64,000 bases of DNA from Alphaproteobacteria bacterium (GCA_015062395.1 SUUS01000001.1:65429-129428); one strand, 5' to 3'. Counted from the first letter of the stretch, positions 34,919-57,529 are shown. Numbers and translations: made by a program. The notes: generated by a model from the letters alone, not told the origin.

Positions 34919-36637
34919 TTATTGATATTTTTTCATTTCTTCTTCAATCCATTTTTGGGTAAAAGATACAACTTGCTCTAATGGAAGCGTTCCTTTTTCA
35001 TCCGTACCACGAATTTTATATTCGACCATTCCGTTTGCCAAGGCTTTTGGTGCAACAATCAAACGTAAAGGAATTCCCATCAAATCAGCTTCTGCAAATT
35101 GAGGACCTGCACCCAAATTACGATCGTCGTATAAAACTTCAATGCCCAGATTTTCCAATTCAGAATAAAGTTTTTCTGCAGTTTCCCGAACGCCTTCTTT
35201 ATCCATTTGAAGAGCATTTATTTGAACTTGCCATGGGGAAATTGACAAAGGCCATATTGGACCATAATCATCGTGACTAGCTTCAATAACTGATGCCAAC
35301 GTTCTGCCAACACCGATACCATAACATCCCATAATCGGTGTTTGTTCATCGCCATTTTCATCGGTATAGGTCAAGTTCATTGCTTTACTGTAGCGAACAC
35401 CTAACTGGAAAATGTTTCCAACTTCAATACCTCGAACCATTTTTAAAGGAGCACCACATTTAGGGCATTTTTCCCCTTCTTGAACACAGGCGATATCTGC
35501 TATAATAGCGTTTGGAACATCTCTTGATAAATTAAAGTTGTACATATGATAATCAGTTTTATTTGCTCCACACAACAAATTTGCAGTATTGGCAACAGAA
35601 TTATCTACGACTTGGATACAATCGTGCAAACCGATACCACTTGCAAAACCAGGAACAGCCCCTATAGATTCGATTTGCTCATCATTTGCAAATTGGAATG
35701 TTTCTTTTAAAACTTTTGCTAATTTACATTCGTTTACTTCTATATCGCCACGGATAGTCACTGCAACCATTTTTCCACTATCTGTGATATAAAATACCAT
35801 TTTGGCAGTTTGTTCTGGGTGTAAATTAAGTAAAGCACAAACATCTTCAATTGTTTTTACATTTGGCGTATGAACTTCTTGCAAAGGTTTAGGCTCTTCA
35901 TTATTGTATTTGAGCTGACCAGAAGATGCAACTTCTTCGTTTGCAACATAATCGCATTTAGAACACTTTGCGATTTTATCTTCACCAGCGTCACAAATTA
36001 AATCGTATTCATGTGAAACCTTTCCCCCCATCATGCCATTATCTCCTTCAATAGCGACAACTTGAGGGATACCACAACGGGCATAAATACGCGCATAAGC
36101 ATCTGCACAACGGGCATAGTATTGATTTAAATCTTCTTGCGTTCTGTGGAAAGAATAAGCATCCTTCATTGTAAATTCACGAACACGAACCAATCCACCA
36201 CGAGAACGAGCCTCATCACGGAACTTTGTCTGAATTTGATACAGCATAAACGGATATTCTTTATATGAAGTAATCTCACTTCTAGCAATAGCAACACACG
36301 CTTCTTCATGCGTCATTGCTAACAACATTCCATGTTTATTTCTGTCTTGAAAACGCAACAATTCAGATTGAACAGAATCATATCGACCCGTTTCGTCCCA
36401 TAATTCCCTGGGCAAAACAACAGGCATTTTGATTTCTTGTCCTTCAATCGCGTCCATTTCTTGACGAACAATGTTTTCAATTTTTTGAGAAATACGAAAA
36501 GCTGGTGGCAACATCGAATATATACCGTTCGCGACGGGTCGGATATATGCACCACGTAATAAATAAATGTGGCTGATAAGTTGCGCTTCTGTCGGTTTTT
36601 CCTTATAGCGACGACCAATTAATTTGCTATTTCTCAT
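34919..36637 (-). CDS. proS: Prolyl-tRNA synthetase, bacterial type with full INS (YbaK-like) editing domain
   Basis: 572 aa. Class II motifs (FRDEARSRGGLVRVREFTMKDAYSF; GCYGIGVGR). An inserted domain of about 180 aa lies between motifs 2 and 3 (…VFYITDSGKMVAVTIRGDIEVNECKL…). Confidence 0.93.
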   Translation of the reverse strand: MRNSKLIGRRYKEKPTEAQLISHIYLLRGAYIRPVANGIYSMLPPAFRISQKIENIVRQEMDAIEGQEIKMPVVLPRELWDETGRYDSVQSELLRFQDRNKHGMLLAMTHEEACVAIARSEITSYKEYPFMLYQIQTKFRDEARSRGGLVRVREFTMKDAYSFHRTQEDLNQYYARCADAYARIYARCGIPQVVAIEGDNGMMGGKVSHEYDLICDAGEDKIAKCSKCDYVANEEVASSGQLKYNNEEPKPLQEVHTPNVKTIEDVCALLNLHPEQTAKMVFYITDSGKMVAVTIRGDIEVNECKLAKVLKETFQFANDEQIESIGAVPGFASGIGLHDCIQVVDNSVANTANLLCGANKTDYHMYNFNLSRDVPNAIIADIACVQEGEKCPKCGAPLKMVRGIEVGNIFQLGVRYSKAMNLTYTDENGDEQTPIMGCYGIGVGRTLASVIEASHDDYGPIWPLSISPWQVQINALQMDKEGVRETAEKLYSELENLGIEVLYDDRNLGAGPQFAEADLMGIPLRLIVAPKALANGMVEYKIRGTDEKGTLPLEQVVSFTQKWIEEEMKKYQ

Positions 36638-36756
36638 ATTAAAATCCTTTCATAAATGTTTTAGGTGTGCAGAATACATAAAACTTAATAAGATTTCAAG
36701 AGAAAAGTTATTGATTTTTTAATAAATATCGTTTATCGTACAAAACGGAGTTAGAA

Positions 36757-36948
36757 ATGGAAGAACGTTTAAACGATATTGAAATAGCACTAACGAATTT
36801 AGAAAAGACTGTCGATGAAATGAATACCGAATTGATTCGTCAAGCAAAGATTATTGAAAAACTAGAACGTGAAAATAAAGCTTTAAAAGAAACTATCGGA
36901 GGGAATGTTAAACCTTTATCAGAAGAAACACCTCCTCCACATTACTAA
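36757..36948 (+). CDS. slyX: SlyX-family coiled-coil protein
   Basis: 63 aa. RLNDIEIALTNLEKTVDEMNTELIRQAKIIEKLERENKAL ending …PPPHY is a typical SlyX layout. Confidence 0.6.
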   Translation: MEERLNDIEIALTNLEKTVDEMNTELIRQAKIIEKLERENKALKETIGGNVKPLSEETPPPHY

Positions 36949-36963
36949 TAAGGAGAAACACAT

Positions 36964-37950
36964 ATGATTATCGTCACTGGTGGCGCTGGATTTATCGGTT
37001 CAAACATTGTTGCTGGATTAGAAGAAAAAGGATACAAAGACATTGTTGTTGTTGATTGGCTTGGAAATGAAGATAAATGGAAAAACATCGCCAAAAGAAA
37101 CTTATCAGCTATTGTTTCTCCTGAAGATTTAGACGTTTTTTTGGAAAATAACCACAATCAAATTTCAGCAATTATTCATATGGGAGCTATCTCTACAACC
37201 ACCGAAAAAGACGTCGATTTAATTAAAGCGTCAAACATAGATTTAACTTGGAAACTTTGGTGTTTTTGCCGAGATTTTAAAAAGCAATTTATATTTGCAT
37301 CTTCTGCAGCAACTTATGGAAGTGGAGAAAACGGCTTTAATGACAATGACGGCTTGGAATATCTTAATTCATTGCGACCATTGAACCCATATGGTTGGAG
37401 TAAAGCTTTTATTGACAGAAAAATTGCTTTTGAATTATCTGAAAAACGCCCTACGCCACCTCAATTTGTCGGTTTAAAGTTTTTCAACGTTTATGGACCA
37501 AACGAATACCATAAAGGAGGACAAAAAAGCGTTGTCGCACATATTTTTCCTCTTGTTCAAAAAAATGAAGAAGTCTTGCTGTTTAAATCATATCATCCAG
37601 ATTATAAAGATGGTTGGCAATTACGGGACTTTGTGTGGATAGAAGACATTGTCAATGTTATCATTTGGATGCTAGAACACAAATCTGTCAGTGGCTTATT
37701 CAACGTTGGTTCTGGGGAAGCGCGTTCTTTCTATGATTTAGCAGCATCTACTTGGATTGCTATGGGAAAAGAGCCTAAAATTGGTTTTAAAGACATGCCT
37801 GAAGAGTTAAAAGGTAAATACCAATACTACACAAAAGCAAATATAGATAAATTAAGAAGTATAGGCTATACAGCGCCTATGACAAAATTGGAAGATGGCA
37901 TTCGTCAATACGTACAAAATTACTTAAACAAGGAAGATTCATACAGATGA
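36964..37950 (+). CDS. hldD: ADP-L-glycero-D-manno-heptose 6-epimerase
   Basis: MIIVTGGAGFIGSN, ASSAATYG and YGWSK: an SDR epimerase with an HldD-like N-terminus. Confidence 0.85.
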   Translation: MIIVTGGAGFIGSNIVAGLEEKGYKDIVVVDWLGNEDKWKNIAKRNLSAIVSPEDLDVFLENNHNQISAIIHMGAISTTTEKDVDLIKASNIDLTWKLWCFCRDFKKQFIFASSAATYGSGENGFNDNDGLEYLNSLRPLNPYGWSKAFIDRKIAFELSEKRPTPPQFVGLKFFNVYGPNEYHKGGQKSVVAHIFPLVQKNEEVLLFKSYHPDYKDGWQLRDFVWIEDIVNVIIWMLEHKSVSGLFNVGSGEARSFYDLAASTWIAMGKEPKIGFKDMPEELKGKYQYYTKANIDKLRSIGYTAPMTKLEDGIRQYVQNYLNKEDSYR

Positions 37951-39713
37951 TATTTAAAAAAATTAAAGAAAAATTTAAATCGCTTAATTTTATTCAAAAC
38001 TATCGAAAAATATATCCGTATGTGAAACCGTATAAGACGCGTGCGATCCTTGCATTACTGATAACTTTGCCCATTGGATCTATGGATGCAGTTATTGCAT
38101 GGGTTTTAAAACCTTACATGGATACTGTTATGATAGAAAAAAGCGTTCAAGCAACATCTTTAATCCCGATACTAATTATTTTATTTAGCTTGCTACAAAG
38201 TTTACTAAATTACGGAGCGACATATTTAAATACTTGGGTTGGAAATCGTATTACGATGGATTTAAAGATGACGCTTTTTAAAAAGATGATGCGTAAAGAT
38301 CCTGCCTTTTTTGACAAAACAAATTCTGGAGAAATTTTATTTCGTTTCAACAACGACGCAGATACGGCTTGTTCTGGTTTATTAAGTAATTTAAAATTAT
38401 TTTCTACTCGTTTATTTTCTTCAATATCTTTAATTTTTGTCTTGTTTTATAACTCTTGGCAACTAGCTATAATTGCTTTAATCGTTTTATTTGGAGCCTT
38501 ATATCCCCTATCAACGGTAAGAAAAAGAATCAAAGATTTAATGAGTAAAAACGTTGTTTCTGCGTCTGCTATATTAACGCATTATAACGAAGCTTTTTCA
38601 GGAAATAGAGTAGTTGCTTCCTTTAATTTATACGATTATCAAAATAAAAGATTCAAAGAAACGCTACGTCAAATGTTTAAAATTGTTATGAAAATGACAA
38701 AAAAAACAGGGTTATTAACGCCTATGATGCATTTTATTATCTCTATCGGAATTGCAGGCGTTATTTGGTTGGGAAGTTATCTTATTATGAATAATCAATT
38801 ATCGCCAGGTGGTTTTGTTTCATTTATAACAGCTTTATTGATGTTGTATCATCCTATCAAATCGATTGGAACAAACTTTACAAATGTACAATTTTCATTC
38901 ATGGCAATGGAAAGAATTTTTGCTATATTAGAACAAAAAACAACATTAACGACACCTCCGAATGCAAAAATTTTAACATCGGTTGAAAATGTTATTGAAT
39001 TTAAAAATGTCACATTTGGGTACACACCGAATAAACCAGTATTAAAAGATATAAACATAACAGTAAACAAAGGACAAACCATTGCATTAGTTGGTAATTC
39101 TGGAGGTGGAAAATCGACTTTGGTCAGTTTATTGACACGTTTCTATGATATTCAAAATGGTTCGATTGAAATAGATGGAACAAATATTCGAAATTTGAAT
39201 TTAGATTCACTGCGTTCGCAAATAGCTTTTGTTTTCCAAGACAACATTTTATTTGCAGGAACGATTCGAGAAAATATATTGCTTGGAAACAAAAACGCCA
39301 GCGAAACAGAATTAAAAGAAGCAGTAAAAAATGCCTGTTTAGATGAATTTATTGCCTCTTTGCCTTTGGGACTGGATACACGCATTGGAGAAAGGGGAAC
39401 GACTTTATCAGGAGGTCAACGTCAACGCATTGCTATTGCAAGAGCTTTTATAAAAAACGCACCTATTGTAGTTTTGGATGAAGCAACGTCTGCGTTAGAT
39501 AACAAGTCCGAAGGAATCGTACAACAGGCAATCTATAATTTAATGAACGATAGAACAGTATTTATCATAGCACACAGACTATCAACTGTCAGAAATGCAG
39601 ATAAAATAGCCGTTATCAATCATGGCGTTTTAGCCGAAATTGGAACTCATGATGAATTAATTGCTAAAGAAAATTCAATTTATGCATCGTTATATCAAAC
39701 TCAACTTAAATAA
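37947..39713 (+). CDS. msbA: ABC transporter permease/ATPase, MsbA-like lipid exporter
   Basis: Six-TM N-terminal half. Walker A GNSGGGKST, signature LSGGQRQR, Walker B VVLDEATSALD. 4-nt overlap with hldD. Confidence 0.75.
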   Translation: MIFKKIKEKFKSLNFIQNYRKIYPYVKPYKTRAILALLITLPIGSMDAVIAWVLKPYMDTVMIEKSVQATSLIPILIILFSLLQSLLNYGATYLNTWVGNRITMDLKMTLFKKMMRKDPAFFDKTNSGEILFRFNNDADTACSGLLSNLKLFSTRLFSSISLIFVLFYNSWQLAIIALIVLFGALYPLSTVRKRIKDLMSKNVVSASAILTHYNEAFSGNRVVASFNLYDYQNKRFKETLRQMFKIVMKMTKKTGLLTPMMHFIISIGIAGVIWLGSYLIMNNQLSPGGFVSFITALLMLYHPIKSIGTNFTNVQFSFMAMERIFAILEQKTTLTTPPNAKILTSVENVIEFKNVTFGYTPNKPVLKDINITVNKGQTIALVGNSGGGKSTLVSLLTRFYDIQNGSIEIDGTNIRNLNLDSLRSQIAFVFQDNILFAGTIRENILLGNKNASETELKEAVKNACLDEFIASLPLGLDTRIGERGTTLSGGQRQRIAIARAFIKNAPIVVLDEATSALDNKSEGIVQQAIYNLMNDRTVFIIAHRLSTVRNADKIAVINHGVLAEIGTHDELIAKENSIYASLYQTQLK

Positions 39714-39808
39714 TTTTTTTTATAGTTGACAAACTGTTTTAAAATAGTATTCTAACATTATACAGATTTAGGTATGAATCTGCATTGAACAACAAAAAGG
39801 AGATTATA

Positions 39809-42213
39809 ATGAAATTAAGTCAAACAGCGATTAGAGAATTATCTTCTTAATATCGAAGTGTTTTGAAAAAATGCTTCATTTTAAATGCCATCGTATTAAT
39901 GGCAGTTGCCCCTGCAATGGCAGCAGATTATGGCGTAGATGTGACGGAAACCAAAACATACACAGAAACATCTTTTGATGGAACTGTTGCTGGTATTTAT
40001 TCTGGTACTGGAAAAACAGGTACTTTTACAGCTGAAGACATCGTAATTAAAGACACCGAAAGAGGAATTTATGCTGTAGGCACTGACTCTAAAGTGATTA
40101 TTGGTAGCGAATCGGAATTTACCGACAGTTTAACTATATCGAACGTATCTAACAGAGGTATCAGAGCAGAAAAAGGTGCTGAAGTAGATATTTATACTGA
40201 CGATGTCTCGATAAGTGCTGGTGATGACGTATATGCATTACATGTTCGGGGAACGACAAGTACAAATCAAAAAGACGAATCAGACATTGTCACATTGATT
40301 TCCATTAATGCAGAAGATGTAAATTTAACCAGTAAAAATGTTGCTGCTGTTATTGTAAATAATGCAAGTATAAAACAAGATAAAAACAATTCTCCTACGT
40401 CAAAAATTAGTATTGTAGCAGATAATATCAATATTTCATCAGATTCCATAGCACTTTCAACAATGAGTGAAGGAATTATTGAATTAACAGGAAATACTGT
40501 TTTAAACGCACCAGATGTAATTTCTGCTCGTGGAGAATCTACAATTAACATAAATACAACAGACGCAACAAAAACATTAAAAATGGATGGAAACATCAAC
40601 TTTAGTTATAACAATGCGACATCAAAAAGTGGTATTGACGCAAATGTTAACGTAGCGTTAAACGGTACTGAGTCTTATTGGTCTGGAAATACAACAGTTA
40701 ACTGGGATGTTAAACCAGAAAACGAAAAATTGATTGTCTCTAATGCGACTGTTTCATTGAATGAAGGCGCTACTTGGAATGTTGCAAAGATTGAAGAAAC
40801 GGATACACTAAGACAAAACGCATTGAATAACTTAATTGTAAACAAGGGAACTATTTCTGTTGGCACAGGCGCAAAAGCTTGGGTTGAAAATATGCAAGTT
40901 AATGGTAATTTAACCTTAAACGGTTCTGTTACAGCAGATTCCGTTGTTTTTGCGAATAATTCATCCTTAACAACAACATTATTAAAAGATACTGCCATTA
41001 TTACAGCAAATACTGTAGAAGTTGGTGAAAATTCTATTTAAATATCTCGAACGGTACAGGAACATACGCATTCATCGATGCTCAATTAACTGGAGATTTT
41101 TTAAATACTTTATATAACTTAGATGCAACAACAGAACAAGGAAAACTTATTGTATCTGAAAAATCTGCAGAAGATATTGCAAGTAATACAGGTATTTCCA
41201 CTGATGCGGCGGCCACAATTTCTGGATTAGCTGGTTCAGATAATGAAAAAGCTCAATCTATTGCAACCTATATTGAAAGCGAAATTAACTCCGGAAATAC
41301 TGATATCGTAGAAAAGATTACCAACAACATTAATCCGACTTCAAATCCTGTTGTTCAATCTGTATCAACAGAAGTTAATGGGCAAATTATGAATTTAGTT
41401 GGCGCTCGTTTAGCTCCTGCAACAGGACGTTCTGCAGGTGACTTTACAGGTGAATTTGGTGGTTTATGGGCTAAAGGCTTATACAACCGTTCAAAACAAG
41501 ACGGTCAATTCCACAGATACACAAAGGGCGTCGCAATGGGTGCTGATGTTATCTTTGACGAAACATTCACGTTAGGGGTTGGTTATGCTTACAATACAAC
41601 AGACGTCAAAGCCGATGCAAGAAAGACTGACATTAAAGGTCATAACTTCTTTGCTTACGCAGAATATCAACCAAACAACTGGTTCATGAATGCTGCAGTA
41701 AGTTATAGCAAAGCCGATTATACAGAACATAAAGAATTAGTCGGAGAAGAAGCTAACTACAATGTTGAAACTTACGGAGCTCAAGCAATGACTGGATACG
41801 ATTTTGCAGTTGGTTTAACACCTCAAGTTGGATTAAGATACTTGCATGTAAGACAAGATTCTTATAATGATGGTCTAACTTCTGTAAAAACAGAAGATAC
41901 TGACTTATTAACGGCTGTTGCAGGCATCAATTTTGCGAAAGATATGAAAGCATCAATCTTTACATTTACGCCAGAACTTCGTTTGGCTGCAACTTATGAT
42001 GTTGTTTCAGATGGAACAGAAGCCAATGTTATATTAGGAAATGCATCTTATACTGTTAAAGGTCAACGCTTACCTCGTTTTGGTGTCGAAACAGGTGTCG
42101 GTGTTCAAATGAATGTTGCCGATCGTCTTAACGTTAACGTTGATTATGATTTAGGTGTTCGCAGAGATTATATGAGCCATACAGGTACTGTATCTTTGAA
42201 ATACAACTTCTAA
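39809..42213 (+). pseudogene. Autotransporter adhesin-like gene disrupted by an in-frame TAA and a frameshift
   Basis: ATG at 39809 has a strong AAAGGAG and is followed by an in-frame TAA at 39848-39850, just before a perfect signal peptide (KKCFILNAIVLMAVAPAMA). The passenger has repetitive beta-helix-like N/T/S/G-rich repeats. Its frame ends at 41041 while the downstream frame is open from 41029. The C-terminal beta-barrel domain (41389-42213) ends ...SLKYNF. Confidence 0.7.
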
Positions 42214-42414
42214 TCATTGTTATAAAAAAGAAAAGTCTATGGTTGTGAAATCTGGCTCGAAGGCCAAAATTTAATAGTTCGTGGAAAAATAGCCTTTTTA
42301 GGAAGAAATCAAAAATAGCTCGCAAATAAAGATTTTAAATCAGAAGAAAATATAGACTTGATACCAAAGAAACCAAAAATAAAATAAAAAAAATGAAAAA
42401 AATAAAAAAAGGTA

Positions 42415-42443
42415 TTGACAAGCATTTTTTTATTGTCTATAAT
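42415..42443 (+). promoter_or_regulatory. Consensus sigma-70 promoter of tRNA-Pro(UGG)
   Basis: TTGACA (42415-42420), 17 nt, then TATAAT (42438-42443). The tRNA starts 10 nt downstream. Confidence 0.6.
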
Positions 42444-42453
42444 GCCTTTTATT

Positions 42454-42530
42454 CGGAGCGTAGCTCAGTCTGGTAGAGTACTTGGTTTGGGACCAAGGTG
42501 CCGTAGGTTCAAATCCTATCGCTCCGACCA
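42454..42530 (+). tRNA. tRNA-Pro (anticodon UGG), CCA encoded
   Basis: CGGAGCGTAGCTCAGTCTGGTAGAGTACTTGGTTTGGGACCAAGGTGCCGTAGGTTCAAATCCTATCGCTCCGACCA. Cloverleaf folded by hand: acceptor CGGAGCG/CGCTCCG, anticodon stem CTTGG/CCAAG with loop TT-TGG-GA, T-arm GTAGG-TTCAAAT-CCTAT. Confidence 0.93.
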
Positions 42531-42534
42531 ATAT

Positions 42535-42567
42535 AAAAAAGCGGAAGTTTATACTTTCGCTTTTTTT
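42535..42567 (+). terminator. Rho-independent terminator after tRNA-Pro(UGG)
   Basis: GCGGAAGT (42541-42548) pairs with ACTTTCGC (42553-42560) with one G-U pair, then T7. Confidence 0.7.
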
Positions 42568-43058
42568 GTTGTCCAATTCCCCTGCAAAGCCCTAGGACAG
42601 CCAACTGCTGAAAAGTGATTTTATACCAAAATCGATGTGGTTGCCGAGATTTTTCCAAATTGATATATACTTTTGCCCGAATATATATACCTTGTGCAAT
42701 GTGATTTTTTCGCCAGAGCCACTTGACCGTAAGTTATTGTTTTTGAATAATTGATTATAATGGTATGACATTAACTTTCCGAATCTTGCCAAGCAGTGGT
42801 TGGTTTAGAAACCCAAAAACTGATACCACAATTTGCACACACCTCTAAAAGCCTTATTTTATAAGGAGTTTAAATTTTTTATAACTTATACACATGGTGT
42901 TTGGGGCATATAAAGAGATTTTCATTTTTTTTGAAAAAAATGACTATTTTCTTGCAATTTTAGGTAGAAGTCGTTAAAATGTGACGGATTATAATTTTAT
43001 GCTGATAAATGAGGTGTTTTCATGGCAGACGATATTCAAATTCAAAAAATGGACGGCA

Positions 43059-43178
43059 TCACCTTTTTTTCAAGCTTTTTGTGATTGCTTCAATACCCGC
43101 TTTTACAGCGCGGTCAGCATCGGCCTTGGTTAATCCTGCTGTTTTAGCAATAGCTTCAACTAATTCTGTTTTATTCAT
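43059..43178 (-). pseudogene. Truncated HU/IHF-family DNA-binding protein gene (5' fragment only)
   Basis: Reverse-strand ATG at 43178 has an AAGGAA upstream. It reads MNKTELVEAIAKTAGLTKADADRAVKAGIEAITKSLKK, the canonical HU N-terminus, then hits TGA right after an A7 run. Even with the frame corrected, only GDAV follows before all HU similarity is lost. Confidence 0.6.
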
Positions 43179-43322
43179 TGTATTTTCCTTTCTTTATATA
43201 TAAAGTTAAATGAAGGCTCATGATACCTTCATTTAGTATTAGAGAGAATTTAGATGGGTATGTCAAGAGGAAAATTAATTATACCAATAATCTGCATTAA
43301 GAGTGGCCAGTAATCTTTTTTC

Positions 43323-43351
43323 TTGACAAAAAAACAAAAAAGTGATATAAT
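43323..43351 (+). promoter_or_regulatory. Consensus sigma-70 promoter of the ProRS2-PPTase-ATP-grasp operon
   Basis: TTGACA (43323-43328), exactly 17 nt, then TATAAT (43346-43351). The ATG at 43394 is preceded by AGAGAGAGG. Confidence 0.6.
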
Positions 43352-43393
43352 ACGACATCGTGTTTTAAACATAAAAAGAGAGAGGCTATAAAA

Positions 43394-44908
43394 ATGACTT
43401 TAAAAAATACAAGAGCGAGCAACTATCCTGAGTGGTATCAGAATGTCATAACTGCAGCTGATATGGCAGAAGTATCTTCTTCGCCAGGATGCATGGTTAT
43501 TAAGCCTTGGGGGTATGGGATATGGGAACGTATTCAACGGGTTCTAGATGATAAGATCAAAGAAACAGGTCATGAGAATTGTTACTTTCCTCTATTTATT
43601 CCTTTAAGCTATTTTCAAAAAGAAGCAGAGCATGTTGAAGGTTTTGCTAAAGAAATGGCAATTGTTACTCATAGTCGCTTAACTATGCAAGATGGCAAAT
43701 TGACACCTGATGGAAAATTGGAAGAACCTCTTATTGTTCGTCCTACCTCTGAAACAATTATTGCGGATTCGTTCTCAAAATGGGTCAAATCATACAGAGA
43801 TTTGCCAATTATGATAAATCAATGGGCAAATGTTGTCCGTTGGGAGATGAGACCAAGAATCTTTTTACGAACAAGAGAGTTTTTATGGCAAGAAGGTCAC
43901 ACTGCACATGCTAGTTATGAGGAAGCGGAACAAGAAGCAAAAACCATGTTGAATGTGTATTCTGATGTGGCACGAGATGCTTTGGCTATGCCTGTTATAA
44001 AAGGACGCAAGCCCGAGCATGAAAAATTCCCAGGCGCTGTTGATACATATTGTATAGAAGCAATGATGCAGGATGGTAGAGCTTTACAAGCTGGTACCTC
44101 GCACTTTTTAGGCCAAAATTTTGCCAAATCAGCTGATATTAAGTTTCTAGGTAAGGATGGGAAACAACAATATGCATACACAACCTCTTGGGGTGTAACG
44201 ACACGTCTAATTGGTAGCTTAATTATGACGCACGCTGATGATGAAGGAATGGTCGTTCCTCCAAAGATTGCACCACATCAAATTGTTATCGTCCCTATCA
44301 TCAAAGATAAAGCTCAAAGAGAGGAAGTAATGTCCTACGTGATGCGCTTGTATTCTGCTTTATCTAAACAGAGCTATGATGGCGAAAAAATTCGTGTAAA
44401 AGTTGATACAAGAGACAAGGAATCTGTAGACAAAATGTGGGAGTGGACACGAAAAGGTGCCCCCATTGTATGTGAGGTTGGACCTCGTGACGTAAAAAAC
44501 AATGGTTTAATGGTCAGAACAAGAAATAAGATCAACACCCCAGAATGGAAACAAGTTGTTCAGTTTGATGATTTTGTTTCATCAGCTTCTAAGAGGTTGG
44601 AAGATTTCCATATGGATTTATATAACGCTGCGAATACTCGTTTACAACAAAATCAAAGAACAGATATTACAACGGCAGAGGAAATGCAAGCATATTTTGC
44701 GCAACAAAACTCTTGGGTAAACGGTCAAGGGCAAAAGGTAGCTTTTGTCCGTGGCAAATGGTCTGAAGATCCAGAAAGCGTTGATAAAATGAAGGAAATG
44801 AAAATTTCAATTCGCTGTATTCCTGAGGATCAATCTCAGAAGGAAGGAAATTGCCTTTTGACTAATAAAAAAGCGAAACTTGATGTTATTTATGCAAGAT
44901 CTTATTAG
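43394..44908 (+). CDS. proS: Prolyl-tRNA synthetase, archaeal/eukaryote-like type (no INS domain, ProRS-C1-type C-terminal domain)
   Basis: 504 aa. YPEWYQNVITAADMAEVSSSPGCMVIKPWGYGIWE and the following N-terminus are typical of type-II (archaeal/eukaryote-like) ProRS. Class II motifs RPTSET, FLRTREFLWQEGHTAH and TSWGVTTR. The C-terminus ends ...VIYARSY, with the conserved terminal Tyr of this subtype. Confidence 0.9.
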   Translation: MTLKNTRASNYPEWYQNVITAADMAEVSSSPGCMVIKPWGYGIWERIQRVLDDKIKETGHENCYFPLFIPLSYFQKEAEHVEGFAKEMAIVTHSRLTMQDGKLTPDGKLEEPLIVRPTSETIIADSFSKWVKSYRDLPIMINQWANVVRWEMRPRIFLRTREFLWQEGHTAHASYEEAEQEAKTMLNVYSDVARDALAMPVIKGRKPEHEKFPGAVDTYCIEAMMQDGRALQAGTSHFLGQNFAKSADIKFLGKDGKQQYAYTTSWGVTTRLIGSLIMTHADDEGMVVPPKIAPHQIVIVPIIKDKAQREEVMSYVMRLYSALSKQSYDGEKIRVKVDTRDKESVDKMWEWTRKGAPIVCEVGPRDVKNNGLMVRTRNKINTPEWKQVVQFDDFVSSASKRLEDFHMDLYNAANTRLQQNQRTDITTAEEMQAYFAQQNSWVNGQGQKVAFVRGKWSEDPESVDKMKEMKISIRCIPEDQSQKEGNCLLTNKKAKLDVIYARSY

Positions 44909-44913
44909 AAAAA

Positions 44914-45573
44914 ATGAGCAAAATTTTTCTTTATCATGTAGATAAATCAAAAATTGATGAGTCTCAGCTTTCTGTTCTGGAGTCTATTTTGTCAGCAACA
45001 GAAAACAAAAGATTTAAAAAGATAAAAATGATAGATGCGAGAAAGAATTTTATTCTTTCTCGTTTTCTGATTAATAAGGCATTAATGAATTTCAATTGTG
45101 CGCAAAGATTTCATATTGGTAGAACTATATATGGGAAACCATATTTATCTCCAAATCCTAAAAATTTAAAAATATCAATAAGTCATACGAGAGATATTAT
45201 TTGCCTTTTAATTGCAAAAAATATAGAGTTTATAGGTGTTGATATAGAGGAAAAAAACAGAAAAATAAATAAAAAAGGTATTATAAATTTTCTGTACTCT
45301 CCTGATGAAAAATTGTATCTTAAAACAAAAGATTTGTATAAAAATTTTTTTAAATATTGGACCTTTAAGGAGGCATTTACGAAAGCTCTTGGAAAAGGAC
45401 TTTTAATTCCATTTAATCAAATATCCTTTTCCAAAAAATACCAAAAGTATTATGTTACCTCTGTGCCTATTGATATAAACTCTAATACAACAGGGTTCAT
45501 AGTATGTTTAGATAAAAATGAAAGATCAGCCGATATTAACATAAATAATGTTATTATAGGAGGGATAAAATGA
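44914..45573 (+). CDS. Sfp-type 4'-phosphopantetheinyl transferase
   Basis: GKPYL, SISHT, IGVDIEE and YWTFKEAFTKALGKG (the W/KEA motif). It starts 5 nt after the ProRS2 stop. Confidence 0.85.
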   Translation: MSKIFLYHVDKSKIDESQLSVLESILSATENKRFKKIKMIDARKNFILSRFLINKALMNFNCAQRFHIGRTIYGKPYLSPNPKNLKISISHTRDIICLLIAKNIEFIGVDIEEKNRKINKKGIINFLYSPDEKLYLKTKDLYKNFFKYWTFKEAFTKALGKGLLIPFNQISFSKKYQKYYVTSVPIDINSNTTGFIVCLDKNERSADININNVIIGGIK

Positions 45574-46409
45574 AAAGAATTTGTATTGCGACAGATGAAG
45601 ATAATATCAATGATCCTGAGAATTTACTAATTAGTAAAATTCTTAATGACATGGGAGCTAAAGCAGAATTGACTATTTGGGATAAACAAGAAAGTCTTTT
45701 CAAAGATTGCGACTATGTTTTAATTCGTTCTTGTTGGAATTATCACAAATACCCAGATAAATTTATTCAATGGATAAATTCTCTCAATATTCCAACAATC
45801 AACGCTAAGAGTTTAATCCAATGGAATATTCATAAAAAATATCTTCTTGAGTTAGAAAAACACAATATTGAAATTCCAAAAACATATGTTATTCAAAAAG
45901 AAAATGTAAAAGATTTTAATTTTAATATATTTGATGAATTTGTAATAAAACCAGCAATATCAGCAAGTGGCTATTTGACATATAAATATAATAAAAATGA
46001 TAGTGAAAAGGTAAATTCTTTACTTCCATTGTATTCTTCAGATGTTTTAATACAAGAATTCATTCCGGAAGTAATACAAGAAGGTGAAATATCCTTTGTA
46101 TTTTTCAACAATAGCTTTTCACATGCTGTAAAAAAAATACCTTCACTATCTGATTTCAGAAGTCAAGCAAGATATGGAGGAACTGTTAAAAATTTTATTC
46201 CAAATCAAGCTTTAAAAAATAAGGCAGTAGAAATAGTACAAAAAATCATGGATATCACTAACGAATGCCCTTTCTATATGAGATTAGATGCGGTTTTGAG
46301 AAAAAATAATTTAGTTATAATGGAAATTGAGGCAATTGAACCCAGGCTTTTTTTATCGAATTCAAATTGTGATATCTTTAAAAAAGCTTGGCAATCTATT
46401 CTTCCTTAA
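45570..46409 (+). CDS. ATP-grasp ligase, RimK/GshB-like
   Basis: VIKPAISASG, VLIQEFIP, DFRSQARYGGT (compare the RimK EFRSN..GG motif) and LVIMEIEAIEP. ATGA overlap with the PPTase gene and a GGAGG RBS. Confidence 0.75.
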   Translation: MKRICIATDEDNINDPENLLISKILNDMGAKAELTIWDKQESLFKDCDYVLIRSCWNYHKYPDKFIQWINSLNIPTINAKSLIQWNIHKKYLLELEKHNIEIPKTYVIQKENVKDFNFNIFDEFVIKPAISASGYLTYKYNKNDSEKVNSLLPLYSSDVLIQEFIPEVIQEGEISFVFFNNSFSHAVKKIPSLSDFRSQARYGGTVKNFIPNQALKNKAVEIVQKIMDITNECPFYMRLDAVLRKNNLVIMEIEAIEPRLFLSNSNCDIFKKAWQSILP

Positions 46410-49400
46410 CTGTATCTTCTAAAAGGGATATATACAAAGAAGCCCAGTCTTTAATGGTATTTATATCAAAACGATGAACATGATACCAAAAATTAAAACG
46501 AAGATTGCTTTTCTGCATGTCGACTATCAGAAATAATCCCGCTAATTCTCTTAAGGTTGAATAGTTTAATGTATTCAACAATGGTTCTGAAATGGTTCCA
46601 AGTGTTTCTAAAACTTCTACTTTAGGCCAGACATTGTCTTTTTCTTTGTGATAATTATTCAGCATGATATAGGCATCTGTGAAATAACTTGATCGAGAGA
46701 AATTCAAAAACTTTTCGACATACTTAGGTAAAAGATTCACTGGGTAGTAAGACCTTTCATTCACAAGAGATACAATACTATTAATTTGGGTTATTTGTGT
46801 CATATTAGAAAGAGTTTCATCTAAAGAAATCGGAAGTGGGAATTGTTTAACGAATGGGCCTATTGTTTCTTTAAAATTATCCTCTGTTCGTCCATTGAAA
46901 ACAGTTCCTATTAATAAATTATGTTGTCTTGTTAATTTTACCAATAACTTCGAATAAACAAACAACAATACTGAAAAAACGGATACATGCGCTTTATGAG
47001 CAAATTTATTTAAGGATTCATATACTTTTTCTGAAGAAAAAATGGTATAGCAACTTGACGGATAACACTGTTCAAAAAATTCATCTCCGGTTTTATTTGG
47101 CAAAATTACAGGACGTGCAATACCAGCATATAACCCACCAAAGAAGGCTTCATTTTCCTTTTCTGTCTCCAGTAAAAATTTATGTTGCCAATCTACATAT
47201 TGATCATAGAGAACTGGATTTGGGAGTCTCAAATGTGATTTTTGAAGAAAAGAGGCATAAAATTTTCTTAATTCTTCAACAAATACCGTCACAGATGTTC
47301 CATCGAATGGCAAATGATGCGTAAAAAGAAGACATATAAACTGATTATTATTTAACTTTAAAATTTTTAAAATCCAAGGTGGGGTTTTTGTAATATCAGG
47401 AAAAGAAGATGTTAACGTACATGCTAAATTTTTTATATATTCAGCAACATTTTCTACACCCTTCATATTCACAAAAATACTTTCACTAGAAATGAAATCT
47501 TTTATATTACAAGTTTCATAATGATTATCAACATAACAATGTGTCAAAATTGGATGTCTTGAAATAACCTCTTTTAAGGCGTTCAAAAATGAATTCTTTT
47601 TTAGTTCGCAATGGAAAAGTATTGGTATCAATAAATATCCATATTTAATTCTTTCTAATGCCACCCACCTTTGTTCTTCATATGATAACTTGTTTTCACT
47701 ATTGTTCTTATCCAAGACAATCTCTGTTTTTTCACATAGTTTTTTATCCAATGATTTACTGGAACAATTTTTGATACAAAAGGCTGTTAAATTTCTTAAA
47801 GTTCTTTCTTTAAATACAACACTAACAGGGAATGAAATATTTAACAAATGTCTAATAGCGTTACGTAATTCTATTGCGCTTAAAGAATCAAGTCCCAAAT
47901 CAAAAAGATCATCATCTTTTTCAATATGGCAATTATGTGTATATTTGTCTAAAACTCGAGCAACTTCGGATGAGACAATACTAGGAATGTCTTGAATGCT
48001 GTATTGAGTTAATGTATCCGTGTTCTTTTCCTCAACAGGCAAATAATCTTTTGCTAACAATCTAAAGAACGGGCTATTTTCGAGTTTATATTTTCTTAAA
48101 AAGATATTCCAATTCATAGGTAATAAAATTACCTGTTCTTGTAAACTAAGTATTGATGACATTATCTCATCGAAATCGTTTTTTTTAAGATAAGAATATC
48201 CCTTTTCTTCTAATTTCTGCTGTAGATTCTTGTTTATATCAATAGTTCCTAAGTCCCCCCATGCTCCCCAATTAATACTTAATGCTGGTAATCCCAAAGA
48301 TATCCTATATTTACACACAGAATCCAAGAATGCGTTTGCTGTTGTATAATTAGATTGTCCAGGATTTCCTATTACGGATACAGCGGAAGAAAAGACTACA
48401 AAAAAATCTAACTGTGTATTTAAAGAGAGTTTATGTAAATTCCATACTCCAAGAACCTTTGCCTTTGCAATTTTCTTAAAGTCCTCCATAGTCGTATTTG
48501 TAAAGGATTTATCCTCAATACAACCAGCCGCATGCACAATTCCACCGATATTTTTTATATCAAGTTTTGAAGACAATGCAAAAAACTTGCTCTCATCGGA
48601 AATATCCATACTTATATATTCTAGGTCTAATGTGTCATCAAGCAGCTTTAAAGTTCTTATTTGTTCTATCACCTCATTCTTTTCCCGACGGCCAACTATC
48701 ACAATTCGTTTTGCACCATTTTTAATGAGCCACTTACTGGTTAAAAGTCCTAATGCACCTACCCCCCCTGTCACTAAATATTGTTTTTTAGGAACTATAG
48801 TGAGTTTCCGTTCTGATGATAAAGAAATGGGGGCTAAAGTTGCTTCAAAGACACTTTTCCCGCCTGGATCAATTTGAAAAAAACTAAACGACTTTTGCTG
48901 ACGTATACACGAAGCAATCTTTGAAATAGAATTTTCTGTCAATGCCTTTGCAAAAAAACAAGAGCATTTGATTTCTGAATTTTCAAGACAAATTGTTTTT
49001 AAAAGAGAAACTAGAGATTCATTTAAAAAGTCATTACCAACAAAAATAAACGAAATATTTTCTATTTTCCCCATTAAAAAGGCTTCTTTTAAGGAATAAA
49101 AAACGTTTTTGATCTTATTTAAATAAAGCCTTAAGATATCAGATGAGGTGTAATTCTGCACATCATCGGAAATACTGTCTATAACATATACAATACGTTC
49201 TATTTTCTTCTTAAAAGAATCAAGTTTTTCTTTTAAGAAGAATGAGTTATTTGAAATATCTGTACTTACAAGGAGATTCTTTTCTGATGAGAAGTGTGCT
49301 ATTTGACTTTTATCTCCTATAATTAACGAATTCTCTATATAAGATTTAGAAAAATTAGAAAGCGAAACTGATTCCCATTGAATTTTGTATAAATCGTTTC

Positions 49401-52400
49401 TCCAACTTGCCTTTTGTAATAAATCAACCGGCTCAAGATAATATTTTTTTAAATCAAAAGGATAAGTTGGTAGTTCAATTAATAAACAATTATCTTTCGG
49501 TAGGATATGGTCAAAATTAACGGATATTCCTTTCGAAAATAATTTTCCAAATGCTGAAAGTAATTGTTCTGTATCATCAGTAGTTTTTCTCATCATAGGT
49601 ATATATGTTGCGTTCTGCTCATCATAACATTCTGCAACCATATTAAGAAGCACAGAATTTGGACCTATTTCCAAGAAAATATCAACATCCTTATTTTTTA
49701 AATTATGGATCATATTTTCAAAATTGACAGGTTGAATCATGTGGTTACACCAATAGTCTGAAGATATTTCTCCTGTTTGAATAAAATCCCCCGTTACATT
49801 TGAAAGTAATTTTATAAAAGGATCCTTAAATGAAAATTTGGAAAGATATTTTTTATATACCGCCACAAGGGGATTAGCAACACTTGAATGGCCAAAACTG
49901 CTGTTATCTAATTTTTGTGCTTCAATCTTCTGATCATGTAAAGCTTTAAAAAGTGATAGTATTCTCTCTGTTGGACCAGATACAACCACTAAATTAGGTG
50001 TATTGATAGATGCTATAGATATCTCATTATAGTTTTCCAACAGTTTTTCGACAGTATTTTTATTAGCTCTGATTGCTAACATTTTTGCATGAATTTTTAA
50101 TGAAGTTAACAAAACAGCTCTATGATAAACTATTTGAAGTAATTCATTTAATTTTAGTATACCAGCACAGTAAGCTGCAACGTATTCTCCCAAACTATGT
50201 CCTAATACAAATTTAGGCAAAATTGCCATTTGTTTTAAAATTTCTAGAATAGATACTTCTATGGCTACAATTGCCAGTTGATTTAAAATAACATCTTGTT
50301 CTGAATATTTTTCCTGTTTCCATATTATATCGATTAGATCAAAATCCGTAAATTTCTTTATAATTTTATTACATTCCTGAATCTTTTTCTTAAAAATAGC
50401 ATTTTTCTCATACAGCCTCTTTCCCATCCCAAAATATTGAGATGTATAACCAGAAAAAATAAAGGCAAGCTGTTGTTTTTGTGAGACCTTAAAATCATCT
50501 TTTGTAACAGATGGGAGTTTTAATCGTTTTTCAGTATTTGACAGTTCGTATATCAAACGATCCATTGTATTCGCAACAAAAGAGACCCTATAATCAAAAT
50601 GATATTTCCTCTTTAAAAGTGAATAAGAGATATCCTGTAGACGTAAATCACGATGATTTTCGAAGAAAATTCTATGATTGTGTATTATTTTAACTAAATC
50701 CTCGAATTTCTTTCCAGAAAAAACAAACAAATAAAAATTATTCTTTTGTTTTGTTTGGTTGTTTTTTTTGTGTGAATAACTTTCTAAAATGACATTAGCG
50801 TTAGTACCACCAAGACCAAAGGAATTCACTAAGCAATAATGTTTCTTTGATTTCCAAGGGATCGTTTTATTATTTACATAAAAGGGAGAATCATCCAACT
50901 CCAATAAGGGGTTATTTTTTTTAAAATGAAGTGTAGCAGGTATTTGTTTATGCTGAATACATAAAATTGCTTTTATTATCCCTGCCATGCCAGAAGCCCA
51001 ACCGAGATGACCTATATTAGTTTTTACGCTCCCAATAACGCAATCCCTTTTCCTATTATTACCGAAAACATTTTTTAATGCTTGGATTTCAACTGCATCT
51101 CCAACGACAGTTCCAGTTCCATGTGTTTCAATAAAAGAAATTTTATCTGGCAGTATGTTTGCATCTTTTAAAGCTTGCTGTAATGATCGTGTTTGTCCAT
51201 CAATTGTTGGTGCTAGAAAATTAGATTTCCCATTATTTCCATCATTACTAACACCACTTCCTGAAATAATGGCTAAAATATTATCTTTATCTTTTATGGC
51301 TTTTGATAGTGGTTTTAATAAAACTACTCCTAATCCTTGGGCCATCATCATACCTTCTGATCTTTCATCGAAAGTACGTGTATGGCCATCTGGTGACCAA
51401 GGCATGTCTTTTTGGAAAGTATATTTATGTTTTGATGGGGACATAATGTTTACAGCACCAACTAGTGCCATTTCACATTCTCCATTCAAAAGAGCTTGTT
51501 TTGCCAAGTGAATTGCAACCAACGATGAAGAACATGCAGATTGTACATTAATACTTGGTCCTTCTAACCCCAATTTAAAGGAAACTTTTGTTGGTAAGTA
51601 ATCCTTATCCCCGCCCATCATAACTTGCAAATCCGAAAAACGTTCGAAGAAATACCTATTAGAACGATAATCTAAGTTTGGGTTAAGGTTATTAACAAGA
51701 TAGCTACTAAATCCTTGGGAAGCAAAGACTCCTATCTTTTTAGTCGTATTATTGTTAAGATATCCTGTTTTTTCTAGTAGTTCCCAAGATAATTCCAAAA
51801 ACTTTCGTTGTTGTGGATCCATCATTTCTGCTTCAGTCTTTGAATATCCAAAGAATTCAGCATCAAACAAATTTGCATCATCAATTGTAGATGAACAAAA
51901 TACATCATGCTCAAAGGGATCCAGCATTGACAAATCCTGTGATGGGCCAAAAGATTCGATACTTTCTTTACCAGTTGAAAGAAAATTCCAAAATTCGTCA
52001 GGAGTATGGCACTTAGGAAAATTGCATGCCATTCCTATTACAGCGATTTTTTCTTTTACAGGTTTTCCAAAATCTTGAATAACTGCTTCTTTCCCCTGTA
52101 TTATATTTCCTTTTAAGAGATCAGATACAGCATTAAATGTACTATTTTTTAGTAGCATAGCAACTGGTATTTTTTGCTTGAATGTTTCGAAAATTTTCGT
52201 GTATAGCTGAAGCAAGAGTAATGAGGTTCCACCTAGCTCAAAGAATGTCTTATTTTTGTCAAAGTCGGTTATGTGCAAAAGATCTCGCCAGATTTCTTCC
52301 AACTTAGTCAATTCTGAATGGGTTGTTGTTTCTTTTTTTTCTATATACGTTTGAATTAATACTTTTCTATCCAGTTTCCCTGACGGGGTTCTCGGTAATT

Positions 52401-53811: not shown

Positions 53812-54043
53812 GATTCTGAATGAAACTCACAACATCCCCTATCGCTTTCATTTTGGCTATTTCTTCATTTGGAAAAGAAATATTAAATTTTTCTTCCAAC
53901 CGAAAAAATAAATCCATTTTATCTAAGGAATCCACTTCCATTTCTTTAAAAGACATATCACTGGTCAATATCTTATCATGTAAAGCGAACTTTACCTCTT
54001 TTAACGTTTCTTGAACTATTTGAAAAATATCGTTATCACTCAT
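53801..54043 (-). CDS. Discrete acyl carrier protein
   Basis: 80 aa. MEVDSLDKMDLFFRLEE (DSL serine motif). AGGAGG RBS. Overlaps the megasynthase start by 11 nt. Confidence 0.8.
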   Translation of the reverse strand: MSDNDIFQIVQETLKEVKFALHDKILTSDMSFKEMEVDSLDKMDLFFRLEEKFNISFPNEEIAKMKAIGDVVSFIQNHAK

Positions 54044-55004
54044 TTTTGCCTCCTGTCAATGTTAATAAACAATTACACCAAGAAAAACCCGTTCCAAATC
54101 CAGATAATACAAGGTAATTAGCATCTTTTTGTTTCAGATGTGGCTCTAGGATTAATGGGATTGATGATGAACTCGTATTACCATAATTAGCCGCTTTGAA
54201 TTTTAACTGATTTTCTTTTAGATTCAGGGTCGAAGATAATCTTTCCAGTAGATATCTTGATGGTTGATGACACAAAAACTCAGAAATATCACAAGTATCC
54301 AGTCCGTTTTTTAACAATAAGTTTTTAATTGATGCTGGAATTTCTTTCAACACATTATTAAAGACCATACGACCATCCATTCTTAAAAAATTTTTTTCTA
54401 TTATGGTCTCATAAGAATTTGGCAATGTTCCAAAATCCCAATCTTTTAAAATATATCCTGTTGAAACATCTTTTGTTATATAAGTCACTGTTGCTGCGTC
54501 GCCAAAGAGTAATACTGTATTTTTATCTTTTGGGTCTAGAATCCTCGATAACTGGTCACATGTGAAGAAGAGAGCGTTTTTCAAATGAAGGGTTTTCATC
54601 ATAGATAAAACGGTTAGTAAAGCATGGCAAAAACCAGCACATCCTTGACCGATATCAAAAGTAATACATTTTTTTGATAAACCTATTTTATTATGTAAAA
54701 TCGCGGACATATATGGAGCCTTATGATCTGGTGTTTGTGTTACCGTACATACTAAATCAATATTTTCAATGTCAATTTTGATTTTTTTCTCTAAATCATG
54801 CCATGCAGATAAACACATATCAGCCAAAGTCTGATGTTCTTTTATTTTAGACCTCCTAATTATTCCCAATTTATTTTCTATGAAATCTGGACTTACCTCA
54901 AAAGTTGTTAATAAATCCATATTATTTACATAGTTATCTGGAATATAAGTGCCAATACATTTTATTTTAAAGTTTTGCAAGCTCATCCCTCCTATTGATT
55001 TCAT
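54036..55004 (-). CDS. KASIII (FabH-like) beta-ketoacyl-ACP synthase
   Basis: DIGQGCAGFCHAL (Cys), FLCHQPS (His), ANYGNTSSSSIPLIL (Asn): a complete Cys-His-Asn triad. The start is uncertain (55004 or 54986). Overlaps the ACP gene by 8 nt. Confidence 0.85.
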   Translation of the reverse strand: MKSIGGMSLQNFKIKCIGTYIPDNYVNNMDLLTTFEVSPDFIENKLGIIRRSKIKEHQTLADMCLSAWHDLEKKIKIDIENIDLVCTVTQTPDHKAPYMSAILHNKIGLSKKCITFDIGQGCAGFCHALLTVLSMMKTLHLKNALFFTCDQLSRILDPKDKNTVLLFGDAATVTYITKDVSTGYILKDWDFGTLPNSYETIIEKNFLRMDGRMVFNNVLKEIPASIKNLLLKNGLDTCDISEFLCHQPSRYLLERLSSTLNLKENQLKFKAANYGNTSSSSIPLILEPHLKQKDANYLVLSGFGTGFSWCNCLLTLTGGKNE

Positions 55005-57452: not shown

Positions 57453-57529
57453 TGGTCGGAGTGGCGGGATTTGAACCCACGACCCCTACGTCCCGAACGT
57501 AGTGCTCTACCAAACTGAGCTACACTCCG
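57453..57529 (-). tRNA. tRNA-Pro (anticodon CGG), CCA encoded
   Basis: Reverse complement is CGGAGTGTAGCTCAGTTTGGTAGAGCACTACGTTCGGGACGTAGGGGTCGTGGGTTCAAATCCCGCCACTCCGACCA. Acceptor CGGAGTG/CACTCCG, anticodon stem CTACG/CGTAG with loop TT-CGG-GA. Confidence 0.93.

Follow-up and report, generated by a model that had tools for sequence, protein, structure and literature searches.

A prolyl-tRNA synthetase of archaeal/eukaryote-like type coupled to a hybrid NRPS-PKS cluster in an uncultured alphaproteobacterium that also encodes a bacterial-type enzyme

The DNA considered here, a stretch of 64,000 nucleotides (nt) from an uncultured gut or rumen Alphaproteobacteria bacterium (GCA_015062395.1 SUUS01000001.1:65429-129428; hereafter the window, with a GC content of ~33% throughout), encodes two prolyl-tRNA synthetases (ProRS) of different architecture. 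ProRS-1 is of the bacterial type (P-type) and ProRS-2 of the archaeal/eukaryote-like kind (E-type), and the gene for the latter is joined to those of a hybrid nonribosomal peptide synthetase-polyketide synthase (NRPS-PKS) cluster. The genes and sites concerned are, from left to right (protein lengths in amino acids, aa):

34919-36637, minus strand: ProRS-1, P-type with INS editing domain, 572 aa; last in the block topA-dprA-plsY-ProRS-1
42454-42530, plus strand: tRNA-Pro(UGG), with the bacterial identity set C1:G72 and A73 and a perfect promoter-like site (42415-42443) ahead of it
43323-43351, plus strand: promoter-like site TTGACA-17-TATAAT, a 12/12 sigma-70-like consensus match, TG-extended, 43 nt 5' of the ProRS-2 start
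43394-44908, plus strand: ProRS-2, E-type, 504 aa, C-terminus ...DVIYARSY; heads the ProRS-2/PPTase/ATP-grasp unit
44914-45573, plus strand: Sfp/HetI-type 4'-phosphopantetheinyl transferase (PPTase), starting 5 nt past the ProRS-2 stop codon
45570-46409, plus strand: ATP-grasp ligase, its gene sharing 4 nt with that of the PPTase; resembles DcsG/RimK/glutathione synthetase only weakly, with scores under the family cutoffs
46396-53811, minus strand: hybrid NRPS-PKS megasynthase, 2471 aa, A-T-KS-AT-KR-T-C, with the proline-like code D-V-Q-F-I-A-Q-V-V(-K)
53801-54043, minus strand: free-standing acyl carrier protein (ACP), 80 aa; overlaps the genes on both sides
54036-55004, minus strand: FabH-like ketosynthase III (KSIII)
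54967-56067, minus strand: MDR-family (zinc-ADH/enoyl-reductase-like) oxidoreductase; as a marker of the cluster family it is the best conserved (40-52% identity)
56064-56840, minus strand: 258-aa protein of unknown family, with no Pfam match and absent from the other cluster loci
56913-57353, minus strand: FabA/FabZ-like dehydratase, with which the minus-strand cluster operon probably begins
57453-57529, minus strand: tRNA-Pro(CGG), inverted relative to tRNA-Pro(UGG); closes the region

An original prediction made from the sequence alone had described ProRS-1 as a bacterial-type enzyme with a full INS insertion and ProRS-2 as an archaeal/eukaryote-like enzyme that lacks INS and ends in Tyr, and its coordinates proved exact. 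ProRS-1 passes both P-type models (NF006625, 675.2 bits against a cutoff of 558; TIGR00409, 568.2 against 306.7), and its editing domain (PF04073, residues 257-367) lies within the PF00587 span (95-452), between the halves of the class II core. ProRS-2 passes TIGR00408 proS_fam_I (490.2 bits, cutoff 437) and carries the PF09180 ProRS-C_1 domain at residues 448-504, the terminal residue being Tyr; a Pfam scan of the protein gave no match to PF04073. ProRS-1 aligns over its whole length with Pseudomonas aeruginosa ProRS (5ucm), colinear through the insertion (E 5e-135), and ProRS-2 aligns with Thermus thermophilus ProRS (1h4q; E 1e-129). In these alignments the motif 2 and motif 3 stretches are kept in both synthetases, the RPTSET and FLWQEGHTAH segments included, and the frames are undisturbed. 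As had been predicted, both proteins are thus intact by their alignments, and neither looks catalytically dead. Alphaproteobacteria normally use an INS-less bacterial-type ProRS; neither copy passes the model for that enzyme (NF008979, cutoff 550), ProRS-1 scoring 422 bits in two pieces and ProRS-2 110.

The pair is no binning artefact, because one contig (of up to 132,643 bp) carries both genes in independent assemblies, their products being listed eight accessions apart as MBE6449174 and MBE6449182. Six JGI metagenome contigs repeat the ProRS-2 side of the locus. The codon comparison proposed along with the original prediction was run within the window: both ProRS genes are host-like, diverging from the rest of the window by ~0.05, as do other long genes. 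Recent transfer was considered from codon usage and GC3 and set aside, a host-like composition saying nothing on ancestry.

ProRS-2 is coupled operon-like to the cluster genes. No terminator-like site was seen between ProRS-2 and the PPTase gene, and the ProRS-2/PPTase/ATP-grasp unit lies tail to tail with the megasynthase gene, convergent to the minus-strand cluster operon. The Pfam matches of the megasynthase (AMP-binding, two PP-binding, ketoacyl-synt, Acyl_transf_1, KR and Condensation), together with the adjacent PPTase gene, identify a hybrid NRPS-PKS; its closest homologue outside its own species is ~34% identical over the full length. Two tRNA-Pro genes, 90% identical to each other and in inverted orientation, bracket ProRS-2 and the entire cluster. 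Their anticodons are UGG and CGG, and the acceptor end C1:G72/A73 is standard in both by the identity rules for tRNA-Pro, G72/A73 being bacterial (PMC11229370). These two tRNAs are the only Rfam matches in the window, so that no RNA leader such as a T-box or riboswitch was found there.

What the megasynthase might load can be read from its A domain, whose Stachelhaus pocket positions were mapped via the A4 and A5 core motifs. When the five megasynthases of the family are aligned, the pocket reads D-V-Q-F/Y-I-A-Q-V-V in all of them. Compared with the proline code (DVQLIAHVVK), all five members have Q for H at position 322. Among single domains in the PDB, the one that best matches the region with the pocket is that of tyrocidine synthase 2 module 1 (208 bits), a proline-activating domain; LgrA has a nominally higher score, which is the sum of two A domains (106 + 140 bits). 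The A domain in the window thus apparently loads proline or a very close analogue.

The pairing of cluster and synthetase is not confined to the window. Relatives of the cluster were collected from the contexts of four megasynthase matches of ~34% identity, after which a reductase profile was run over JGI metagenomes. The genes for reductase, KSIII, ACP and [A-T-KS-AT-KR-T-C] megasynthase form a cassette which, often accompanied by PPTase and methyltransferase genes, recurs at the loci L109/L110, L111/L112, L113, L114 and L116, and without KSIII at L121. An E-type ProRS gene stands beside or inside the cluster at 5/5 loci at which the relevant flank is visible, namely the window, L109, L111, L113 and L116. 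The L109 enzyme (500 aa; TIGR00408, 490.1 bits) is flanked by methyltransferase and transposase remnants on one side and by MFS, beta-lactamase-fold and NRPS genes on the other. The L111 enzyme has 478 aa (TIGR00408, 616.7 bits), the first 151 aa of the L113 enzyme are visible before the contig end cuts off the rest, and the L116 gene begins 139 bp past the megasynthase gene. The L111, L113 and L116 synthetases share 73-81% identity among themselves and 41-49% with those of L109 and the window; with no more than 41-49% identity between the cluster-linked ProRS of different lineages, three lineages or more are represented. The reductase profile also retrieved 78 loci that lack this megasynthase, and in this control of 639 kb no ProRS occurs. 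In a genome of 2-4 Mb, the probability that a gene falls no more than 5 kb from a particular locus is a few per thousand (a rough estimate, not computed), and two independent repeats of the window's pairing by chance are therefore very unlikely. Two of the loci look mobile and plasmid-like, which would be an unusual setting for a sole housekeeping proS: at L110 type IVb pilus and shufflon genes lie beside the cluster, and at L116 a MobA/VirD2 relaxase gene lies 2.3 kb upstream, its best matches being small Clostridium plasmids.

Further genes accompany these clusters. The cluster at L109:16283-21925 and L110:1-7055 goes on with an MFS transporter, a beta-lactamase-fold protein, a second NRPS (A-T-C) and a glycosyltransferase, and the pilus genes on the other flank of L110 are PilO/Q/R/S-like, which indicates a conjugative element. 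The Clostridium-like cluster (L111:843-7018 and 17344-18348) contains an acyltransferase, a ketoreductase, FabA, biotin carboxylase and carboxyltransferase subunits of acetyl-CoA carboxylase, a biotin carrier and a biotin ligase; with fatty-acid-type genes and a malonyl-CoA supply of its own, it may well give its product a lipid-like moiety. The tRNA-Pro genes were considered as a general integration site of such clusters, an idea rejected since no tRNA genes are found at the other cluster loci.

How might a second ProRS serve such a cluster? Second aminoacyl-tRNA synthetase (aaRS) genes in biosynthetic gene clusters are an established resistance device (PMC5388404, PMC12945691), and the features of a self-resistance aaRS found here are a second copy, co-localisation with a cluster and association across diverged clusters. 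We hold it about as probable as its negation that the cluster makes a proline-derived inhibitor of ProRS and that ProRS-2 serves the producer as an insensitive copy. We envisage that a functional E-type enzyme was drawn into the transcription unit of the hybrid cluster, whereas ProRS-1 would be the stably placed P-type enzyme with cis-editing. The A domain would load proline or a very close analogue, a single malonyl extension would follow and the ketone would be reduced; the terminal condensation domain might then join the proline-derived ketide to a partner supplied by the KSIII/ACP/dehydratase/reductase set. Such a product would inhibit prolyl-tRNA synthetase, most plausibly that of P-type architecture, and in the producer the charging of tRNA-Pro would be sustained by ProRS-2, whose active site is built differently, a form of target-bypass self-resistance. 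We infer this chemistry, the target, the type that is sensitive and the insensitivity of ProRS-2 from gene content and its comparison across lineages. Because ProRS-2 has no unusual residues at conserved positions and different E-type subfamilies have been recruited in each lineage, insensitivity would have to lie in the E-type architecture itself, and the P-type enzyme is then the likelier target. A precedent for type-selective inhibition exists in the opposite direction, halofuginone being ~100-fold weaker on P-type enzymes (PMC11229370). Somewhat more tentatively, the loci may together represent an undescribed mobile NRPS-PKS family, spread over three lineages (Alphaproteobacteria, a Clostridium-like one and one associated with plasmids), that makes a proline-derived inhibitor of bacterial-type ProRS and carries an E-type ProRS as a portable immunity gene.

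A comparison with the closest known arrangements shows what this scenario shares with precedent. Bacillus thuringiensis has ProRS1 (P-type) and ProRS2 (E-type) in one genome, a pair explained by stress tolerance (Ivanesthi et al., NAR 2024, PMC11229370). Like the window, it combines an intact INS-containing P-type enzyme with an intact E-type enzyme ending in Tyr, and its tRNA-Pro has G72/A73; the motif-2 loop of the E-type enzymes is bacterial-style, being RPR in ProRS-2, TTR in B. thuringiensis and RTR in Thermus. In B. thuringiensis, however, no cluster linkage has been reported and none was present around the one proS record inspected, so that an E-type proS beside this cluster family could be dismissed for that record, whereas the E-type gene of the window is operon-like with an NRPS-PKS and the arrangement recurs. 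The best B. thuringiensis proS match to the cluster-linked ProRS of L111 is 58% identical, a figure that refers to the L111 enzyme and not to ProRS-2. What is new here is thus the context of the E-type ProRS, its linkage to a cluster, the occurrence of a P-type and an E-type enzyme in one genome being already known.

The logic of toxin and antidote in one locus is that of mupM, which encodes IleRS2 in the mupirocin cluster of Pseudomonas fluorescens, an 'eukaryote-like' second aaRS that accompanies a PKS-type cluster and a bacterial-type housekeeping copy (PMC5388404). The mupM enzyme is of another class of synthetase and serves another amino acid; both mupirocin and the resistance to it have been established by experiment, whereas product and resistance are predictions in the window, and ProRS-2 is no divergent paralogue but an ordinary member of its clade. 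ThrRS, too, is among the cluster-borne immunity synthetases: ObaO in the obafluorin NRPS cluster and BorO in the borrelidin PKS cluster are demonstrated immunity copies and belong to class IIa, the same subclass as ProRS. They serve another amino acid and share the architecture of the housekeeping enzyme, whereas the two copies in the window differ in architecture. Besides ThrRS, second aaRS borne by clusters as immunity genes are IleRS, LeuRS, SerRS, TrpRS, MetRS and AlaRS (PMC12945691, PMC11229370, PMC5388404). In ProRSx/tRNA-ProA of Streptomyces (Vargas-Rodriguez et al. 2021, cited in PMC9437257), a duplicated ProRS is encoded near a tRNA-Pro gene, and ProRSx is the sole ProRS entry in the review's table of duplicated synthetases; the reviews of duplicated aaRS consulted list no producer-immunity ProRS. 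ProRSx is a P-type duplicate whose tRNA has an Ala anticodon, whereas in the window the anticodons are UGG and CGG, the acceptor ends are standard and ProRS-2 has ordinary orthologues in many genomes; a Pro-identity tRNA with a non-Pro anticodon, the mark of a recoding pair, does not occur in the window.

The surroundings of the two genes in related genomes bear on their history. A relative with a 92% identical ProRS-1 has the order epimerase, slyX, ProRS-1, plsY, dprA, topA, pfk, a relative with an 88% identical ProRS-1 has the same order plus an mscS insertion, and the neighbouring proteins have diverged in step (62-91% identity). P-type relatives of 63-67% identity occur in housekeeping contexts in metagenome-assembled genomes (MAGs) of other gut Alphaproteobacteria. 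In the sister species (88%; L105-L107) the genes that run from pyruvate phosphate dikinase as far as the MsbA-like ABC transporter are retained, ProRS-1 included, and past the transporter gene groESL and an ankyrin gene stand instead of the autotransporter, tRNA-Pro, ProRS-2 and the cluster. Universal synteny of both copies, a possibility raised together with the original prediction, was rejected on account of this break. Presence and absence in relatives was followed through shared accession blocks of P-type and E-type homologues (9 + 10 proteins, few accessions), and in this small sample the only shared block is the window's own, MBE6449174/MBE6449182. An attempt to join the contig with an 89% identical ProRS-2 (L097) to those with 88-92% identical ProRS-1 (L100, L105) by GC and tetranucleotide correlation was abandoned, since the measure does not discriminate organisms. 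In L036:2789-8900, from the GTDB MAG of a more distant gut alphaproteobacterium (CALXPZ01, ~50% GC), an E-type proS with 68% identity to ProRS-2 lies directly upstream of plsY-dprA-topA, in the order and orientation of ProRS-1 in the window; the same chromosomal slot thus holds either ProRS type in related lineages. The E-type proS genes annotated on large alphaproteobacterial plasmids, CP050563.1 of Rhizobium leguminosarum and NZ_CP155756.1 of Sphingomonas parapaucimobilis, may be further extra, mobile E-type ProRS genes.

Several observations weigh against self-resistance as the role of ProRS-2. Its 89% identical orthologue lies between cstA and a metallophosphatase gene, near dnaA and with no cluster, and nucleotide similarity to that locus extends from 81 nt upstream of the start codon to the stop codon, so that the promoter-like site is conserved in an orthologue that has no cluster. 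An 81% identical orthologue has an IS3 transposase gene on one side and a radical-SAM/SPASM cassette on the other. At least ~45 GTDB species of gut Alphaproteobacteria have an E-type enzyme of 66-73% identity with no such cluster nearby. With E-type enzymes in many relatives that lack the cluster and orthologues located elsewhere, ProRS-2 did not arrive with the cluster. Identity to the relatives falls in parallel for the two enzymes (92/88/82% for ProRS-1, 89/88/81% for ProRS-2), which suggests that the genus inherited both and that both are older than the cluster; the genus thus probably had both synthetases prior to the acquisition of the cluster. Nor is ProRS-2 a divergent or horizontally acquired paralogue, being typical of the gut-alphaproteobacterial E-type clade. 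Among positions at least 90% conserved in 83 relatives it deviates at 5, each deviation being shared with 3-7 relatives, and a search for resistance-type substitutions against the same 83 relatives found none. Zinc-binding cysteines in the C-terminal domain are a feature of E-type enzymes, as in T. thermophilus; the first two are absent in ProRS-2 and its entire subfamily and present in the L111 enzyme, and the RPR motif-2 loop is, like the cysteine loss, subfamily-wide and no specialised variant. The count of five in five leaves out L114, which ends 204 bp past the megasynthase gene, and L121, where an ABC exporter gene precedes the end of the sequence. In the Clostridium-like lineage (L111, L113 and L116) the E-type enzyme may be the host's normal ProRS. 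Finally, literature searches returned no paper in which ProRS is connected with an NRPS-PKS cluster or with self-resistance.

The statement behind the original prediction that a bacterium normally has one ProRS type holds, ~22% of bacteria having an E-type enzyme (PMC11229370). Its structural description is correct as well. As to its further statement, that duplicate aaRS of another type are frequently resistance or stress isoforms, resistance does not follow from duplication alone, because a P-type and E-type pair is already documented in B. thuringiensis and explained there by stress tolerance. The bypass of one enzyme's inhibitor by the other gains real, if indirect, support from the coupling to the cluster and its recurrence and loses some through the ordinary character of ProRS-2 and its orthologues in unrelated contexts.

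Conceivably, the two enzymes are general isozymes that share the work, an editing P-type and a more stress-tolerant E-type as proposed for B. thuringiensis, and the closeness of the cluster is incidental. The B. thuringiensis pair is constitutively expressed (PMC11229370) and its E-type gene, in the record inspected, is not next to this cluster family; in the window, ProRS-2 is preceded by a conserved promoter-like site of its own and shows no specialised substitutions, and the parallel identity series suggests that both enzymes predate the cluster. We consider this account unlikely, although not negligibly so, since it leaves unexplained why E-type ProRS genes stand at diverged clusters, two of them plasmid-like, and at none of the 639 kb of control loci, and why ProRS-2 and the PPTase gene are separated by 5 nt. 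If, instead, the two enzymes were a snapshot of xenologous gene displacement, with one type replacing the other and both transiently kept, it would be understandable that neither copy is the canonical alphaproteobacterial INS-less type (422 and 110 bits with NF008979 against 550), that related gut Alphaproteobacteria appear to have one type or the other, and that the E-type proS of L036 occupies the place upstream of plsY-dprA-topA that ProRS-1 has in the window. Both copies are intact with host-like codons, however, and have diverged in step down to ~80% identity, which speaks for long-term retention, and the recurrent pairing with clusters is again left unexplained; displacement is accordingly improbable in our judgement.

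The remaining alternatives accept a link with the cluster and differ in what ProRS-2 does for it. It might guard against misincorporation by discriminating better against a proline analogue of the pathway, much as TyrZ excludes D-Tyr, a precedent cited in PMC11229370. The A-domain code is Pro-like and not identical to that for proline, with Q against H at 322 in all five members, and the 258-aa protein bears a faint nicotianamine-synthase/CntL-like signature (E 0.23), a class that makes aminobutyrate or azetidine units from S-adenosylmethionine (SAM). That hint is far below significance, though, and the gene is absent at the other cluster loci, where the methyltransferase resembles ordinary type-11 methyltransferases; an E-type enzyme, which has no editing domain, would moreover be no obvious choice for better discrimination, and we regard such a role as rather improbable. 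Least probable to us is a biosynthetic role, in which ProRS-2 would feed an enzyme of the pathway with Pro-tRNA(Pro) or activated proline, comparable to VlmL or AcmD in other clusters, possibly with the participation of the flanking tRNA-Pro genes. Cluster-borne aaRS that feed tRNA-dependent steps are known (PMC12945691), and two tRNA-Pro genes do bracket the region. Yet the conserved core contains no known aminoacyl-tRNA-using family (Fem/GNAT-type, cyclodipeptide synthase or LanB-like), the megasynthase has its own Pro-like A domain, the other cluster loci have no tRNA genes, and ProRS-2, a full-length enzyme of the standard kind, has orthologues outside clusters.

If ProRS-2 does confer self-resistance, it would be the first ProRS self-resistance determinant and the cluster the first genome-mined pathway to a bacterial ProRS inhibitor. 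ProRS is a validated drug target, on which halofuginone and febrifugine act in malaria, fibrosis and toxoplasmosis. Natural ProRS inhibitors are few, comprising febrifugine, cispentacin and phosmidosine (PMC11229370). A cluster family that is repeatedly accompanied by a second ProRS is the kind of signal used in resistance-guided genome mining, and the interest of the locus lies in this recurrent pairing more than in the duplication, as a testable lead to a ProRS-directed natural product. It offers a concrete, expressible locus of ~14 kb with a built-in test pair, ProRS-1 and ProRS-2 of the same genome. Self-resistance would also be a possible reason, besides stress tolerance, for bacteria to keep both ProRS architectures, and uncultured gut and rumen Alphaproteobacteria would be shown to hold such pathways.

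Some minor observations concern the cluster and its surroundings. A segment of the 258-aa protein, LMAGSGYHPETLI, resembles the SAM-binding loop of CntL/nicotianamine-synthase-type aminobutyryl transferases, at E 0.23 only. The idea of an azetidine-carboxylate synthase was not supported, the L109 methyltransferase being an ordinary type-11 enzyme and the 258-aa protein reaching only E 0.23 to CntL, with no match in Pfam. The 81% identical orthologue of ProRS-2, with the IS3 transposase gene upstream, lies in L094:8728-21515 (ENA ERZ16268269 scaffold_448). Downstream are genes for a radical-SAM/SPASM maturase, a ScmC-like HprK-related kinase, a sugar nucleotidyltransferase, a purine nucleoside phosphorylase, a B12-radical-SAM enzyme and a PapB-like maturase, and then for a short-form AlaRS (NF002436). 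The group may be another biosynthetic cassette, of a different kind, next to this ProRS gene.

The interval between ProRS-1 and tRNA-Pro(UGG) holds, rightward, an epimerase gene, the MsbA-like ABC transporter gene and a two-ORF autotransporter. The autotransporter (39863-42213) is split into a passenger-like ORF of 392 aa that has no Pfam match and a beta-barrel ORF of 274 aa, with a gap of ~350 nt, and may be a disrupted gene or a two-partner arrangement. Between tRNA-Pro(UGG) and ProRS-2, on the minus strand (43040-43170), lies a 39-aa remnant with the bacterial HU/IHF DNA-binding fold, according to matching JGI contigs, apparently what a rearrangement has left of a gene. Of the genes in the window, that for pyruvate phosphate dikinase (25843-28500) deviates by far the most in codon usage (0.26, against 0.03-0.16 for the others), which is consistent with very high expression.

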